IMG/VR virus record: IMGVR_UViG_3300010970_000163
DNA from: an uncultured virus (IMG/VR IMGVR_UViG_3300010970_000163)
Lineage: Duplodnaviria; Heunggongvirae; Uroviricota; Caudoviricetes
Strand: one strand, 5' to 3'
DNA: 20,000 bases
Shown: one piece after another, positions 3,364-16,306 of the stretch
Position numbering within the stretch: position 1 is the stretch's first letter
Layout of the letters: each line of letters starts with the position of its first letter
Program-made: the position numbers and the translations under genes
The notes under the pieces: generated by a model
The model's input: the letters and a program-made list of their open reading frames with translations, nothing else
What the model was told of the DNA's origin: nothing
The model's database searches: none

Positions 3364-4097
3364 ATTTTCTTGAAGTATCCTTGTTCTGCTCTATCGATTT
3401 CTTGTTGTGTTTTTAAATGCGTTCCTCCGAATATGTCTCTTACCTTAAACTTTCCCTCTTGAATCTTGTATTGATCCTTAAACCAATTGTTCCTCATCTT
3501 GCTCTTCCAGTTTAAGACTTTGTTGCCATAGCTATCGGTCCATCCTAAATCGACATAGTATCCATAACATTTGATTGCCGTTTCTTCGTTATAACCATTT
3601 TCTTTAAAGAACGCCTTTACTTCTTCCTCAGTGGGTGGCACAAAACTTTTCTTCTTCGATTTTGCCAATATATTATTTGTCTTTGTATTAACTTCTGTAT
3701 TTGTATTAATACTCTGTCTTTGTATAGGCATACTTTGACCGAGGTCGGCAAATGCCGATGTCGGCTTTTCCCGAGTGTCGGAATCTTCTAATATCGGCTC
3801 TTCGTACACAACGTGATTCCAGCCCTTAAACACCTTTGTCTTAGTGTCAATTACTTTTACGCTAACTATGTAACCCTTCTCTTGAAGCTGTTTAAACACA
3901 CGATCAATAGTACCCTTAGAGTCAGGCATATTTTCATGCAACTTTGATTTGTACAATATCCAATCTTCTGGCAATGAAAGCAAGTAAACAAGAAGACCTC
4001 TTTCCTCTATTGTTAAACTCTTTGATCTAAGAACATCGTTCTTAACCATTGTAAAATCTCTTATAGATTTTGCTCTTACAATTTGTCCTGTGTTCAT
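3360..4097 (-). CDS. Phage replication initiator / replisome organizer-like protein (N-terminal winged HTH)
   Basis: N-terminal FTMVKNDVLRSKSLTIEERGLLVYLLSLPEDW...LQEKGY; low-complexity linker containing iteron-like repeats; C-terminal FVPPTEEEV...GW...NWK domain; ATGA overlap with the helicase. Confidence 0.75.
   Translation of the reverse strand: MNTGQIVRAKSIRDFTMVKNDVLRSKSLTIEERGLLVYLLSLPEDWILYKSKLHENMPDSKGTIDRVFKQLQEKGYIVSVKVIDTKTKVFKGWNHVVYEEPILEDSDTREKPTSAFADLGQSMPIQRQSINTNTEVNTKTNNILAKSKKKSFVPPTEEEVKAFFKENGYNEETAIKCYGYYVDLGWTDSYGNKVLNWKSKMRNNWFKDQYKIQEGKFKVRDIFGGTHLKTQQEIDRAEQGYFKKI
3739..3797. repeat. Palindromic iteron-like array, putative replication origin
   Basis: CCGAGGTCGG (3739), CCGATGTCGG (3755), CCGAGTGTCGG (3771), degenerate CTAATATCGG (3788); 16-bp spacing; adjacent AT-rich tract ~3665-3715. 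Confidence 0.65.
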
Positions 4098-4103
4098 AAT
4101 GTG

Positions 4104-4199: not shown

Positions 4200-4231
4200 C
4201 AAATATAATGCTTTTTACGCTGCTCTCCAAA
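4200..4231 (-). promoter_or_regulatory. Bacteroidota primary-sigma promoter for the initiator/helicase operon
   Basis: TTTG (4231-4228) - N20 - TATATTTG (4207-4200), matching TTTG-N19-21-TAnnTTTG. Confidence 0.75.
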
Positions 4232-4433
4232 TACGAACACCGCCATCCATAGTTCTTGCGGTAAGCTCGTAGTTTCTTTTCTTCTTTTGGTAGAACAATT
4301 TAGCTAGGTACTTTGAAGTCTCTCCTTTAACGAAGAAAGAATCACCTACTTCTAATTCAGGCAAGATGTATTCTGTCTTGCGGCCTCTTCCACTGCTATC
4401 TGGGATCGGAATGTTTTTGTCAATATTCAACAT
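4215..4433 (-). CDS. Small putative DNA-binding phage protein
   Basis: IDKNIPIP...LEVGDSFFV...RTMDGGVRIWR motif seen in a widespread small phage protein family; first gene after the leftward promoter. Confidence 0.7.
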   Translation of the reverse strand: MLNIDKNIPIPDSSGRGRKTEYILPELEVGDSFFVKGETSKYLAKLFYQKKKRNYELTARTMDGGVRIWRAA

Positions 4434-4464
4434 GGTTTTTTTATTATGTGTGTTTTTACTTTTG

Positions 4465-4497
4465 CAAATGTAATGACATTCTTACAAATATTCCAAA
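4465..4497 (-). promoter_or_regulatory. Leftward Bacteroidota-type promoter
   Basis: TTTG (4497-4494) - N21 - TACATTTG (4472-4465), followed by CAAAA. Confidence 0.7.
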
Positions 4498-4573: not shown

Positions 4574-4581
4574 TAAATTTG
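4574..4581 (+). promoter_or_regulatory. Rightward Bacteroidota-type -7 promoter element
   Basis: TAAATTTG(CAAAA) 20 nt upstream of the SSB start codon. Confidence 0.65.
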
Positions 4582-4600
4582 CAAAACAAAATTACATAAA

Positions 4601-5379: not shown

Positions 5380-6537
5380 ATGACAATCTCCAAATTAGTA
5401 CAGTTACTTCACTCTAGGCCAGGTTATTTAAAGTCAGGTCCAAGTTACATAGCGAGAAAATTTAAAGTCAGTTTGAAGGACGCTACAGCAGCTTTAAAAT
5501 CTGCACGAGCTGAAAGAAATGAAGTTAATAGAAAAGTTGTAAAGGTTGAGCTAACCAATGATTCTGACAATGTTATAACTGAGTTTGAGCAGTATTTAGA
5601 TAAAAACGGTATTGATCATTCTATGGTTAATTCTGTTAAATACTGGCAAAATATGAAAGGAGAACAGAGGTTCTCTGTAGTAACAAAAAGCGAAAGAAGA
5701 GCAGAAGAGATTCAGAAAGATATTGAAGAGTTTGCGGCTAGTTACAGTCCTAAAGCTAGAGTAATAACTAAAGGTAGAGGACATGACTACAAAGTGAAGT
5801 CAACTTTAGAAATTTCTCTTCCTGATATTCACTACGGCAAGTTAACAGATATTACCCTAGAGGAAATGGAGAGGCAATTCCTTGACACAATTGAGGACTT
5901 AGTTAATAAGGGGAAAGGGTTGAATATTGAAAGAGTTCTTCTACCTATTGGAAATGACGGAATGAATACAGATGGAATGAGAATGTCTACAACAAAAGGG
6001 ACTCCTCAACATGATGTCATTGGATGGAAGGAATCATTTAAAGGTTATTGGACTCTAATAGTTAGGGCAGTAGATTTCTTAAAAGATGTAGCTCCAGTTG
6101 ATATAATTGTTGTATCTGGAAACCATGACTACGAGAGAATGTTTTATGCCGGAGATGTTTTAGCAGGTTGGTACCGCAACGATCCGAATGTAACTGTAGA
6201 TAACTCTACAATGCCTAGAAAATATTATAAGTACGGGAAAAACATGATAATGTTTACCCATGGAGATAATGAAAAACCTGCTGATATGCCACTAATAATG
6301 GCAACTGAGCAACCTGAGATGTTTGCGACAACTGAATTTAGAGAGGCTCATTGTGGGCATTATCATAAGGAACAGGTAAACGAATACCGAGGTGTTAAGG
6401 TGAGATTTCTCCCATCGATATGCGCATTAGATGAATGGCATAAAAAGATGGGTTATCAATCACTCAGAGCAGCTCAGGCATTTATTTGGAATCACGATGA
6501 AGGCCTTGAGGGGTATTTACAAAGTAATGTTAAATAA
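5380..6537 (+). CDS. Calcineurin-like metallophosphoesterase (possible nuclease) with N-terminal HTH-like extension
   Basis: Motifs DIHYG, GNDGMNTD, SGNHD, FTHGD, GHYH in canonical order. Confidence 0.85.
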   Translation: MTISKLVQLLHSRPGYLKSGPSYIARKFKVSLKDATAALKSARAERNEVNRKVVKVELTNDSDNVITEFEQYLDKNGIDHSMVNSVKYWQNMKGEQRFSVVTKSERRAEEIQKDIEEFAASYSPKARVITKGRGHDYKVKSTLEISLPDIHYGKLTDITLEEMERQFLDTIEDLVNKGKGLNIERVLLPIGNDGMNTDGMRMSTTKGTPQHDVIGWKESFKGYWTLIVRAVDFLKDVAPVDIIVVSGNHDYERMFYAGDVLAGWYRNDPNVTVDNSTMPRKYYKYGKNMIMFTHGDNEKPADMPLIMATEQPEMFATTEFREAHCGHYHKEQVNEYRGVKVRFLPSICALDEWHKKMGYQSLRAAQAFIWNHDEGLEGYLQSNVK

Positions 6538-6541
6538 AAAT

Positions 6542-6643
6542 ATGAAATTATACATTTTGTCATTTGACACTGCCTATGAGACAGTGAATACTGGAGAGGC
6601 AACATTATTGACTCCTAATTTTACACAGTTAAAAAATCACTAA
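6542..6643 (+). CDS. Possible micro-ORF (33 aa)
   Basis: MKLYILSFDTAYETVNTGEATLLTPNFTQLKNH; ATG 4 nt after the upstream stop with an A-rich leader. Confidence 0.4.
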   Translation: MKLYILSFDTAYETVNTGEATLLTPNFTQLKNH

Positions 6644-6644
6644 C

Positions 6645-6668
6645 AAAAAATGGGGTTCGTTAACCCCA
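6645..6668 (-). terminator. Intrinsic terminator oriented on the minus strand
   Basis: TGGGGTT-CGTT-AACCCCA stem; the U6 tail lies on the minus strand (plus A-run 6645-6650), with only CTTTCT on the plus side. Confidence 0.65.
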
Positions 6669-6718
6669 CTTTCTGCACACAAATAAAAAACACACATTAT
6701 AGGACCAGAACAGTCCTA
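6645..6718 (-). ncRNA. Putative antisense small RNA (~70 nt)
   Basis: Minus-strand TACTTTTG (6728-6721), 5' hairpin (6698-6720), GU-rich single-stranded segment, terminator; no minus-strand ORF here. Confidence 0.5.
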
Positions 6719-6720
6719 TA

Positions 6721-6728
6721 CAAAAGTA
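6721..6728 (-). promoter_or_regulatory. Antisense Bacteroidota-type -7 promoter element
   Basis: TACTTTTG on the minus strand; no clear -33 TTTG. Confidence 0.55.
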
Positions 6729-6758
6729 TCTCAATTTCACACACGAAAAAAACATTAT

Positions 6759-7388
6759 ATGAAGTATTTGAATTATTTACCTGTTATTTTAAATGATGGA
6801 AATCATTTAGTTACGGGTTTAAATGTTGGGGATGTTAGAATACATATGTCGCTTCATCAAAATGGTCAAGACGCGGAGTATTGGACAAACATTGATTGCA
6901 CAGTACACTCTGATTATTTAACTTGGAAAAAGGGAGATAGCGTATTCATTAAGTACAATGAGATCCGAGAGGTATGCGGTGTGTACGGAGTTTCAAACAG
7001 AATTATTTTTGATGGAGATGCAAAGGTTCATCTCATCAATCCAGAGTTTGTTTATCTTACAATACGTGACGGGGAAATTATTGTTCCTGACGGATTCTCC
7101 CTAGTTCTTCCGGCAATAGAAGAGAAGAAAAAAAGTGAGTATATTATCACGCTTCAAAAGGAAGAGGAGGATTCATTTGAGAAAGATGTATGGAAAATAA
7201 TAAAGGTAGGTGGACCAAGCCCATTGAAAGAGCTTACCTTTGGAACAGACGCTATTCCTCAAGAGGGTTGGTACGTTAAGGTGAAAAAAGATCGTGGTGT
7301 TCCACTAGAAGCTCATTTAAATAAAAAGCTTAAGGAGAGATATTTTTTAATTAGACACAATGAGGTGATGGCTTATGAAATTCGATAG
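6759..7388 (+). CDS. GroES (Cpn10)-like co-chaperonin, probably two tandem domains
   Basis: C-terminal half follows the GroES pattern: VPDGFSLVLPAIEEKKKSEYII...IIKVG...QEGWYVKVKKDRG...RYFLIRHNEVMA; N-terminal half has KKGDSVFIKY. Confidence 0.55.
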   Translation: MKYLNYLPVILNDGNHLVTGLNVGDVRIHMSLHQNGQDAEYWTNIDCTVHSDYLTWKKGDSVFIKYNEIREVCGVYGVSNRIIFDGDAKVHLINPEFVYLTIRDGEIIVPDGFSLVLPAIEEKKKSEYIITLQKEEEDSFEKDVWKIIKVGGPSPLKELTFGTDAIPQEGWYVKVKKDRGVPLEAHLNKKLKERYFLIRHNEVMAYEIR

Positions 7389-8040
7389 TACAGAGTTTGA
7401 GAAATTAAAATATCCGATCCATAAGATACCTATGGATCAGCCTGTATTATTTGAGTTTTCTGACCTGTCTAAATTCTCTATAATATTTTCGGCAAATGAT
7501 TTACCTAAGCAATTAGATCCAGATCTTGTTTTGAGATATTTAATATTGATGTATGACTTAGGATCTCCTGGTCAGGGAATTCCCGATTTAAAGAGAAGAA
7601 AGACATGGGCTATGCAATGCCTGAATATTGAACCTCCATATCCAAAGCATATTACGGATATGCTGTCGTGGAAGATTAAAGGGGTAAACAGAAGGGCAAT
7701 ATATTTCTTACTACTTATGGGTGGTGAGCAGTACATGGTTTGGAAGTCAGCCGAGGAAGCCCTATTGCGTTACACGGAATTAGAGATTAAATTAGAGGCA
7801 GAAGATGAGGCTGCTCAAGCTAAAATAGTTCAGGCAGAAAAGACTCGAAGAGAAATTATTAATATGACAATGAGTCAAATTACTTCCTCTAAGAATGAGT
7901 TTTTGCAAGGTGAAAAAAGTAAGGACCTTGATGATGAGTTGACTGAGTTTACTTTGCTCGATTCACTCGGCATCAGACCGGAAGAATATATTCGTGAATT
8001 TCAAGATAAGGGGGATGTATTCCCTGACATAGATGCGTGA
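7375..8040 (+). CDS. Putative terminase small subunit
   Basis: Directly upstream of and overlapping TerL; helical/coiled-coil C-terminal half; positional inference only. Confidence 0.45.
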   Translation: MKFDSTEFEKLKYPIHKIPMDQPVLFEFSDLSKFSIIFSANDLPKQLDPDLVLRYLILMYDLGSPGQGIPDLKRRKTWAMQCLNIEPPYPKHITDMLSWKIKGVNRRAIYFLLLMGGEQYMVWKSAEEALLRYTELEIKLEAEDEAAQAKIVQAEKTRREIINMTMSQITSSKNEFLQGEKSKDLDDELTEFTLLDSLGIRPEEYIREFQDKGDVFPDIDA

Positions 8041-12782: not shown

Positions 12783-12811
12783 AATAAAACACACACACAA
12801 ATAATACACGT

Positions 12812-13897
12812 ATGGAAAATGAAGTAAAAGCAACAAGCATCTTTGATGCCTTGGGGTTATCTCCTGAACAAAGTAATGTACAGGATAATTCTCCTGTAGT
12901 AAATAATACTACAGATAACAATGCTGCTCAAAATAATGAGCCTGTTGATAATGCGCCTATTGAAGAGCCTACATTTAAGGCATCTGATCTAAAGGCAATC
13001 TTTGGAGACTTCGAGTCTATCGATTCTATCAAAGAGAAGTACATGACGATTGAAGAACGTGCTAAGAAGTTCGATGAATTTGAGCCTTATATCTCAGAGA
13101 GAGAAACTCTTGTTCGTCAATTAGAGTCTCCATTTGCAAATGAGAAATTAGCAAACTTAAATTCTTTCATTAAGAGTACAGGAATTAACGACTTAGATGT
13201 TGCCAATAAATTTGTTGGTAAGACTGCATCTGAGATGCGTGACACTCCTATTCAAACTATGGCACTTGCTGAAGTGATTAAGGATCCTTCTCTATTGCAA
13301 GACTTGACTTTTGAAGAGATCTGTGAGACTATTGCAGAGGAGAATAACACCTATGTTAATGCCTCTAGTGAAGATATCCCAAAAACAATGAAAATGAAGT
13401 TGGGAAAAAATATCTCTATAGTAGAAGAAAAATTAAAAAATATTGGTGAGAATAAAGATTTTATTGCATCTTTGCGTGAACAAATTAACACTGAGAAAGA
13501 AGGTGTTAATAAGTTAGTTAGTGATTGGAAGCCGATTGTAACAGAGGCATCAAAGATTAACGAACTTGACATTGAGATTGATGGTTTAAAGGTAAAGACT
13601 TCGGTGTCGGAGGAAACCAAAAACCAAATTAATCAAGAGGTCATGGGAATTATTTCTGCGAACCCTTTACCTGCTACCGAACAGAATATGGATGCTATAA
13701 ATTTGTACATCCGCACCCGTGCCGAGGCATTGGAGGCGAAGAATGTATATAAAGCTCTAATAACCGCTGTGAGAGGGGAGGCCCAAGAAGCAGCTCTTAG
13801 AGAGTTTCATAATGGATCGGAAGTAGTTAAACACGAGAAACCTGACGGTAAGTCTGAGAAGTCTCAACTACAGAGGTACTTCGAATCACAACAATAA
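12812..13897 (+). CDS. Putative capsid scaffolding/assembly protein
   Basis: Acidic, helical, with a disordered N-terminus; located between portal and major capsid. Confidence 0.6.
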   Translation: MENEVKATSIFDALGLSPEQSNVQDNSPVVNNTTDNNAAQNNEPVDNAPIEEPTFKASDLKAIFGDFESIDSIKEKYMTIEERAKKFDEFEPYISERETLVRQLESPFANEKLANLNSFIKSTGINDLDVANKFVGKTASEMRDTPIQTMALAEVIKDPSLLQDLTFEEICETIAEENNTYVNASSEDIPKTMKMKLGKNISIVEEKLKNIGENKDFIASLREQINTEKEGVNKLVSDWKPIVTEASKINELDIEIDGLKVKTSVSEETKNQINQEVMGIISANPLPATEQNMDAINLYIRTRAEALEAKNVYKALITAVRGEAQEAALREFHNGSEVVKHEKPDGKSEKSQLQRYFESQQ

Positions 13898-15402: not shown

Positions 15403-15442
15403 CTTTTCACACACAAAAAAACAACACAAAAAATCACACACT

Positions 15443-16306
15443 ATGCTATTTATGGACGGTGAAAAATTCTCGCTTGATGCAGAGGATTTAAATCAACTTA
15501 AGTCTGTATTCCCAGACTTCATGTTAAAAAACAAATCTGTTAGAATGACTCACAATGGTGATTCAGTAAGAAAACTACAGACAAACAACCCAATCATTCC
15601 AATGGTATTTGCAAAACCTAAACATGGGATGTTGCTGTTTCATAATTTTGTAGATCCTGTAACAGGAGAACAAAGAGAAGTTCGTTTTAGCGATGGACCT
15701 CCACAATATAGAAATGACGGACGTAAGGTGTTTTCTGCTAAGTCTATGCCTATCGATGCTAATTTCATTTTCGATCCACGTAAGGATAAGGAATTGTTGT
15801 GGTATGTATATAACTTTAGCGGTCTTTTTGCCAATGGTTTAAAGGGAAGATTCAACTCTCCTTATAAATTCTTAATGGTTGAAAGAGAGGCTACAGAGAA
15901 AGCAAATGCACAAATGGCTGAAGCTCGCGCTAAAGTAGCTATTGCAAACTTGACTAAGGAGCAATTGATTGCTTTTGCTAAGGGCAATGTAGGTGTTAAT
16001 GCTGACGATACTAAAGAAGTAATTATCTCTCGTATCTACTCTGCAATGGACAAGAAAGCTGAGTACCGCGAGTATGTAATTGACACTCTAACTCCTCCTC
16101 AAAATAACGATATCCTCGATATCATTGAGAAGGCATGGAACTTAGATCGTTTAGTGCCAAGCATGGATGGAACACAAACAATTCTCATCTATAATGGCAA
16201 AGAAGTAACTCTTGCAGATCTTCCTGTAGACGATAAACAAGGACTGGCAGACTTCCTATCTAAGGACAAAAAAGCCTTAAACCTTGTTAAGAAGGCTATT
16301 AGCTAA
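15443..16306 (+). CDS. Hypothetical protein following the capsid gene (probable virion/assembly protein)
   Basis: 287 aa ORF in the position of the conserved post-capsid gene of crAss-like clusters; CA-rich leader. Confidence 0.7.
   Translation: MLFMDGEKFSLDAEDLNQLKSVFPDFMLKNKSVRMTHNGDSVRKLQTNNPIIPMVFAKPKHGMLLFHNFVDPVTGEQREVRFSDGPPQYRNDGRKVFSAKSMPIDANFIFDPRKDKELLWYVYNFSGLFANGLKGRFNSPYKFLMVEREATEKANAQMAEARAKVAIANLTKEQLIAFAKGNVGVNADDTKEVIISRIYSAMDKKAEYREYVIDTLTPPQNNDILDIIEKAWNLDRLVPSMDGTQTILIYNGKEVTLADLPVDDKQGLADFLSKDKKALNLVKKAIS

Follow-up and report, generated by a model that had tools for sequence, protein, structure and literature searches.

A predicted small RNA gene of a tailed phage with complementarity to the start regions of several phage genes

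Within the window, i. e. the whole stretch of 20,000 nucleotides from an uncultured phage analysed here, a short unit on the minus strand is very probably a real, conserved small RNA gene. Its predicted RNA probably turns down target genes by multi-target repression. That it does so as a trans-acting translational repressor of several phage genes is the reading we favour, albeit with reservations. The layout, the conservation, the strand, the complementarity to leaders and the covariation with two of these leaders are supported by the sequence.

The phage and its host

The window genes encode a primase/helicase, a replication initiator, an SSB protein (DUF3127), an exonuclease, a terminase, a portal and a capsid protein and thus indicate a tailed phage. 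Nearest to the terminase are those of phages of Flavobacterium, Cellulophaga, Tenacibaculum and Maribacter, with 25-28% identity. The motif TAnnTTTG is the Bacteroidota -7 promoter box as described in the accessible text of PMC7366714; in six large relatives 11-16 of 77-107 such sites per genome lie directly 5' of genes, compared to 0-5 for three control patterns. From the terminase similarity and the gene-proximal TAnnTTTG sites we infer a host from the Bacteroidota. An SSB scan led to five distant Bacteroidota loci (30-41% identity), too remote for a host call, and an alignment search with ORF6759, which sought a host or prophage copy, gave no match in genome contigs.

The relatives are 58-68 kb in size, two of them with terminal repeats. 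In the complete relative G004 an integrase was not found in a PHROGs scan of 56 of the 72 called proteins, the core genes being covered via the window. The virion region of relatives encodes a very large protein of 3700-4500 aa (G004 49883-61129, L144/L145; about 4518 aa in G002), in which Pfam recognises nothing beyond a stretch of Phage_L5_gp82 and a weak match to Cache.

Layout of the small RNA unit

The first-pass annotation had described a promoter element, a hairpin, an unpaired stretch and a terminator on the minus strand. Each of these elements was found where it had been placed:

6728-6643, minus strand: whole unit of box, short hairpin, U/G-rich unpaired seed and terminator (from sequence)
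6728-6721, minus strand: host-type -7 promoter box TAnnTTTG, here TACTTTTG (retained in 28/28 distinct variants)
6720-6698, minus strand: inverted repeat around the 5' hairpin (from sequence)
6716-6645, minus strand: predicted small RNA of ~72 nt, up to ~80 nt in relatives (ends inferred)
6702-6716, minus strand: 5' hairpin of 5-6 bp with a nearly constant GUUCU loop (from folds and pair changes)
6700-6676, minus strand: unpaired U/G-rich seed of 25 nt (opening cost ~0.7 kcal/mol)
6676-6643, minus strand: intrinsic terminator with a U6 tail at 6650-6645 (from sequence and pair changes)

A -7 box ends at about -5 relative to +1, and the fifth base after the box is a purine in all 28 variants, with four varying bases in between. 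Hence transcription likely starts at G6716, within the 5' arm of the hairpin, which gives an RNA of ~72 nt. The claimed hairpin is present as an inverted repeat, but with this start only 5-6 of its 8 pairs fall inside the predicted RNA. The terminator has its U6 tail on the minus strand only, as had been proposed; the sequence after the core stem on the plus strand reads CTTTCT. Compared to shuffles, the fold reaches z = -6.2 for 6640-6728 and z = -3.1 for 6645-6716. A -33 TTTG of the canonical kind was not seen by eye upstream of the -7 box, and Rfam gave no family match at gathering score over the unit. The window holds 25 TAnnTTTG sites, most of them within genes. A run search for RNA evidence returned 11 runs (shares 0.05-0.09); in the four that were examined, as contigs, the region 6569-7743, which includes the unit, was covered by none.

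Conservation and strand

In 54 of 56 related loci the unit precedes the homologue of ORF6759, and this holds to a protein identity as low as 50%; in the two exceptions, L027 and L118, the upstream DNA is absent. The loci were collected as homologues of the neighbouring ORF6759, and some contigs occur in two collections. The order of promoter, seed and terminator, which the first-pass annotation had proposed to look for in related phages, is kept in these 54 loci. A covariance model (R1) was built from the window and 25 of the 56 loci, and these training rows match by construction. The unit was recognisable by eye in relatives before R1 was made, and an independent pattern scan found it in 38 loci with a single match each. 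It is single-copy per genome in 10 whole records, and second sites for R1 scored at most 30 bits everywhere (59 sources). Five other phage records that share the exonuclease gave only terminator-level scores with R1 (at most 25 bits).

Among the 28 distinct variants the -7 box reads TACTTTTG in 24, TACATTTG in two and TAATTTTG in two, i. e. changes occur at the two free positions only. Two-sided changes were seen in 7 of 21 stem pairs, with 98.3% of the cells paired. For the 5' hairpin the numbers are 4 of 6 pairs and 96.6%, for the terminator 3 of 15 pairs and 98.9%, and one-sided stem changes are G-U on the minus strand. The stem covariation score exceeds 500 of 500 shuffles; however, related sequences can beat this shuffle control, and the pair table therefore outweighs the score. 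The noncoding gap is more conserved than the adjacent protein. Whereas the 3' end of the seed, UUGUGUG, is invariant, its 5' part differs among four lineages (W, A, B and C). Together, conservation, promoter variation and stem covariation strongly support a small RNA gene on the minus strand.

We considered whether the plus strand encodes a small protein or an upstream ORF, and rejected this. An ATG is present in lineages B and C only, in different frames, and frames are shifted by single-base indels; L011 and L013, for instance, differ by one base. Thus there is no conserved plus-strand small gene.

The DNA upstream of the terminator (6431-6643) is mosaic in comparison with L001, L002, L004 and L009-L014. 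Some relatives have the exonuclease gene and a 33-codon remnant here, in others a different, phosphoesterase-like gene is found, and the remnant forms its 3' end. The gene was thus exchanged, and the RNA unit remained next to ORF6759.

Pairing with phage leaders

When accessibility is included in the energies, four of 24 start sites in the window stand apart (12812, 15443, 4433 and 6759; two of the 24 start positions used were off the start codon). The candidate targets are:

12794-12811, plus strand: leader of the putative scaffold gene (12812-13897), net -17.0 kcal/mol, the best site in the window
15410-15428, plus strand: leader of the post-capsid gene (15443-16306), which encodes 287 aa and follows the major capsid gene, net -15.8 kcal/mol
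4446-4465, minus strand: leader of the 72-aa DUF7303-like gene (4215-4433), net -14.2 kcal/mol
6740-6760, plus strand: start region of ORF6759 (6759-7388, 209 aa), net -13.6 kcal/mol

The leader of the gene at 688 comes next (match at 689-697, net -10.1 kcal/mol); that of the initiator at 4097 reaches -8.2 kcal/mol (match at 4096-4103). These two, and the leaders of the major capsid, terminase and portal genes, were rejected as targets. The six leader matches of the first-pass annotation are all present, and all have the orientation that would let an RNA from the minus strand pair with the mRNA as antisense (the 17/19 match was checked by eye); its target list was incomplete in that the ORF6759 leader, a fourth candidate, had been missed.

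The predicted pairing sites lie 1-33 nt upstream of the AUG. They overlap the adenine-rich positions before the start that promote initiation in Flavobacterium, as described in the accessible part of PMC7797042. Elsewhere in the window, all three perfect matches of at least 10 nt are located in start regions (2.8% of both strands), and 8 of the 11 occurrences of CACACA are in leaders (0.2 expected).

With respect to shuffled controls, a comparison that had been suggested at the outset, the result depends on the leaders and the lineage. For the five best leaders of the window, none of 60 dinucleotide-shuffled seeds reached the mean energy of the real seed. Of 11 genomes, 8 had 0 or 1 of 60 shuffled seeds as good for their five best leaders. 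The three genomes of lineage A showed no such advantage (26, 13 and 13 of 60), and when all leaders are averaged most genomes show none either (1-40 of 60). The same target genes recur across genomes, together with a RecT-like gene and a gene of 271-284 aa, both outside the window. The matches had been noted to be of low complexity, and this likewise limits the seed/leader tests.

Two gene labels need qualification. The match at the "DNA-binding gene" is real, but the 72-aa protein is DUF7303-like below the Pfam cut-off and has no clear fold match; "scaffold" rests on the position of the gene between the portal and capsid genes. The 72-aa protein is one of a very large family of phage proteins (1711 representatives at E up to 0.001), and in the clusters nearest to it DUF7303 is annotated on 13-23% of the members. 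Its structure model is confident (pLDDT 85), yet Foldseek gave no match with E < 0.001, and the best Z in the fold comparison was 4.5. The promoter box of the gene is:

4472-4465, minus strand: TACATTTG (from sequence)

Between the divergent 72-aa and SSB genes there are two opposed pairs of TAnnTTTG boxes, at 4457-4472 and 4574-4594; the plus-strand box at 4457 overlaps the promoter of the 72-aa gene and points away from this gene. For ORF6759 no family could be assigned. The idea that it is GroES-like was rejected, as hhalign against a GroES-like protein of a relative gave a probability of 0.2%.

Covariation of seed and leaders

For each orthologous leader all seed-leader energies were computed and converted to a double-centred advantage of cognate pairs. 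Left out of the count were w3360 (start miscalled), three spurious reference ORFs and two duplicates. Among 24 genes there were two outliers, the post-capsid gene with a cognate advantage of -3.3 and the 72-aa gene with about -3.0, and for each of them none of 150 shuffled-seed sets was as good as the cognate one, in a comparison of four lineages that amount to about three independent seed changes, in low-complexity sequence and with script-called starts. When lineage W, that of the window, is omitted, the cognate arrangement ranks first of 6 permutations for each of the two leaders. Both outliers had already been named in the first-pass annotation from the window alone.

The leader of the 72-aa gene has a different perfect match of 10-12 nt to the respective own seed in lineages W, A and C. 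In lineage B the match is 7 nt only, and here the window seed fits the leader better than the cognate seed does (-18.6 vs -16.7). A seed variant and a perfect match of 14 nt in the post-capsid leader are both private to G002 (2/1000 shuffles). Single seed-leader pairs often fail against shuffles, e. g. the window post-capsid pair with 20/200 and the 72-aa gene of G004 with 55/200.

The remaining genes gave weaker or no effects. Cognate advantages of -1.9 for the RecT-like gene and -1.6 for the 284-aa gene come from two lineages only. The scaffold leader has a low energy with the seed of every lineage, and its cognate advantage is weak (-0.8, three lineages). The ORF6759 leader, with an advantage of -1.2 and 13/150 shuffles equally good, is not significant, nor are two further genes (10/150 and 27/150). 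The gene at 688 shows no covariation (55/150 shuffles equally good), no cognate preference was seen by eye for the initiator at 4097 or for the A-rich linker of its leader, and 13 other genes present in four lineages had no cognate effect (rank 15 of 24).

Hence a seed complementary to distant start regions, with covariation, was found for two targets, within four lineages. The claim of multi-target pairing with the phage's own start regions holds for the 72-aa and post-capsid genes, which covariation in relatives bears out, and moderately for the scaffold gene and ORF6759; for the genes at 688 and 4097, with their weak energies and no covariation, it was not sustained.

Possible mode of action

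In the mechanism that we propose, the host housekeeping sigma factor would transcribe the RNA of ~72 nt from 6716 to ~6645 on the minus strand. Its two hairpins would shield the RNA ends and keep the 25-nt U/G-rich seed open. The seed could then base-pair, in trans, with C/A-rich tracts located 1-33 nt ahead of the start codon in a few phage genes, namely the 72-aa DUF7303-like gene, the post-capsid gene, the scaffold gene and ORF6759, and in complete relatives possibly also the RecT-like gene and the 271-284-aa gene. This pairing would block ribosome loading on leaders that use unstructured A-rich sequence and not a Shine-Dalgarno motif. In Bacteroides, GibS and FopS are repressors that act through base-pairing at start regions, as far as described in PMC7366714 and PMC11697453. 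With a host-type promoter the RNA would be made early, and its likely purpose would be to cap or delay the output of the strongest leaders of the phage. If the output of scaffold, post-capsid gene and ORF6759 were capped while the capsid gene is spared, timing or dosage could be set. Transcription, the exact ends, pairing in the cell, repression over another effect and the timing are what we infer from the features described above.

Alternatively, the RNA could act mainly in cis, as full-length antisense or by transcriptional collision, against a plus-strand message that reads across the gap into ORF6759, terminase and portal; lambda OOP or aQ RNA would be the precedent, and the distant matches would be by-products of a shared leader style. 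The plus strand has no TAnnTTTG between 6640 and 6759 and only a weak U tail, thus the downstream genes are probably reached by read-through, and in every locus the unit accompanies ORF6759. However, cis action makes no demand on the sequence, yet the seed varies together with leaders at distances of 2.2 and 8.7 kb, and the RNA ends 43 nt short of the ORF6759 start. We regard mainly cis action as unlikely; some cis effect is likely under any reading.

Another possibility, which we consider quite unlikely, is that the C/A tracts are sites of a phage or host protein and change together with this protein. The plus-strand copy of the seed would count as a further site of this kind, in the leader of ORF6759; the minus-strand elements would serve otherwise or serve nothing. 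CACACA is strongly enriched in leaders, whose sense the plus strand of the seed shares; since the plus-strand copy is leader-like, a protein-binding motif could yield the same covariation. Moreover, the small beta-alpha-beta-beta fold modelled for the 72-aa protein could bind nucleic acid, but the fold search gave no clear match. Against protein sites, the box, the purine at +5, the U tail and the G-U wobbles all indicate the minus strand, and ORF6759 has its own tract adjoining the start codon.

The RNA could also be a decoy or be directed at the host, i. e. soak up a host RNA-binding protein or sRNA, or pair with C/A-rich host leaders and so mimic an sRNA of the MasB type. MasB (BTnc201, RF04177) indeed gave the best Rfam alignment of the unit (24.4 bits, E 0.022 in a 251-base search, model positions 1-99) and has the same order of hairpin, U/G-rich stretch ending UUUGUGUG, and terminator. 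Furthermore, the 3' end of the seed is invariant and its 5' part follows the phage leaders. The score, though, is far under the gathering threshold of 105, and membership in the family was rejected; the likeness is one of layout, and homology is not implied. MasB is ~100 nt long, narrowly conserved and binds ~40 nt inside the BT_1675 coding region, according to the accessible text of PMC10994844. With R1, 1 of 151 Bacteroidota genomes was matched (26 candidates scored per genome; 1 of 5 in an earlier set), and this sole match in host genomes, L179, is a terminator look-alike without a promoter box. A pure decoy would moreover leave the covariation with phage leaders unexplained. In sum, we give the decoy or host-directed role a small chance. 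Highly improbable is a terminator alone, flanked by leader-like low-complexity sequence and with an RNA that is never made, for although the RNA contigs leave the unit uncovered and TAnnTTTG sites are frequent inside genes, the gap is better conserved than the neighbouring protein and its constraint is typical of a promoter and minus-strand stems.

If translational repression in trans is true, Bacteroidota phages would use a start-region-blocking sRNA of the host kind to coordinate their own scattered genes, in a phylum in which Shine-Dalgarno motifs mean little to most ribosomes. The seeds and leaders of the four natural lineages are ready-made compensatory pairs. With them, the role of C/A tracts as Bacteroidota translation enhancers and the seed length needed without Hfq are directly testable. 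More speculatively, and doubtful as a whole, part of the developmental programme of this presumably integrase-less phage might run on RNA alone: an sRNA made from a host-type promoter, which would recognise a C/A tag in selected early and late leaders and maybe in host leaders via the MasB-like invariant end, and a covarying loop-loop switch that gates the replication initiator could jointly set lysis timing or a carrier state.

Comparison with known systems

FopS and GibS of B. thetaiotaomicron, as far as described in PMC11697453 and PMC7366714, resemble the phage unit in being short intergenic RNAs (FopS 65-70 nt) with a canonical sigma-ABfr promoter (TAnnTTTG), a single-stranded seed and an intrinsic terminator, and they pair near the start codons of several mRNAs as predicted for the phage RNA. 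The same sources describe the Bacteroides phylum as largely devoid of Shine-Dalgarno motifs. Unlike the phage unit, both are host genes with metabolic targets and a 5' seed, and FopS exists in 14 copies, whereas the phage unit is single-copy, carries its 5' end in a hairpin and its seed between two hairpins, and has phage targets. FopS/GibS family models were absent among the Rfam matches with E up to 10 over 6550-6800.

GcvB of enteric bacteria is ~200 nt long and Hfq-dependent. Like the predicted phage RNA it is multi-target and silences ACA-containing translation enhancers upstream of starts (accessible part of PMC3879156). Unlike the phage unit, with which it has no sequence family link, it is a host RNA that acts on amino acid uptake and metabolism genes beside Shine-Dalgarno motifs. 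The best reading, by analogy, is that the predicted RNA works like FopS/GibS or GcvB yet belongs to no Rfam family.

The c4 RNA of P1/P7 is a phage-encoded RNA that sets phage gene expression by pairing; c4 antisense RNA was absent among the Rfam matches to the unit. Further phage sRNAs that set phage gene expression by pairing are P22 sar, lambda OOP, aQ, PreS, VpdS and 24B_1, and those reviewed in the accessible text of PMC12197685, from Proteobacteria, either work in cis on a single gene, regulate host genes or have one phage gene as their target. In contrast, the present unit belongs to a probable Bacteroidota phage and would address a tag common to scattered early and late leaders. A published RNA like this in a Bacteroidota phage was not found in a search of the openly accessible literature.

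Other RNA elements

Five whole records contain a second small-RNA-like unit with a TATATTTG box, ~45 U-rich bases and then a terminator. Its positions, outside the window and from sequence, are:

L134:14547-14644, minus strand
L160:946-1043, plus strand
L142:3840-3945, plus strand
L154:10727-10824, plus strand
L138:14043-14147, minus strand

A clear phage target of this unit was not seen in the pairing comparison. Its U-rich part has a conserved core that includes an anti-AUG.

The leader of the initiator gene (4207-4098, minus strand; start 4097) begins with a TAnnTTTG box at 4207, followed by a hairpin with the loop GTAGAGG and an A-rich linker. Its 3' part is a long bulged stem with CCTCTAC in the loop and a U8 terminator tail just before the AUG. 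Rfam gave no match of note for this element. The two loops keep a perfect complementarity of 7 bases in 29/29 distinct variants, which comprise four sequence types, and from its sequence the element looks like a kissing-loop or pseudoknot attenuator of replication.
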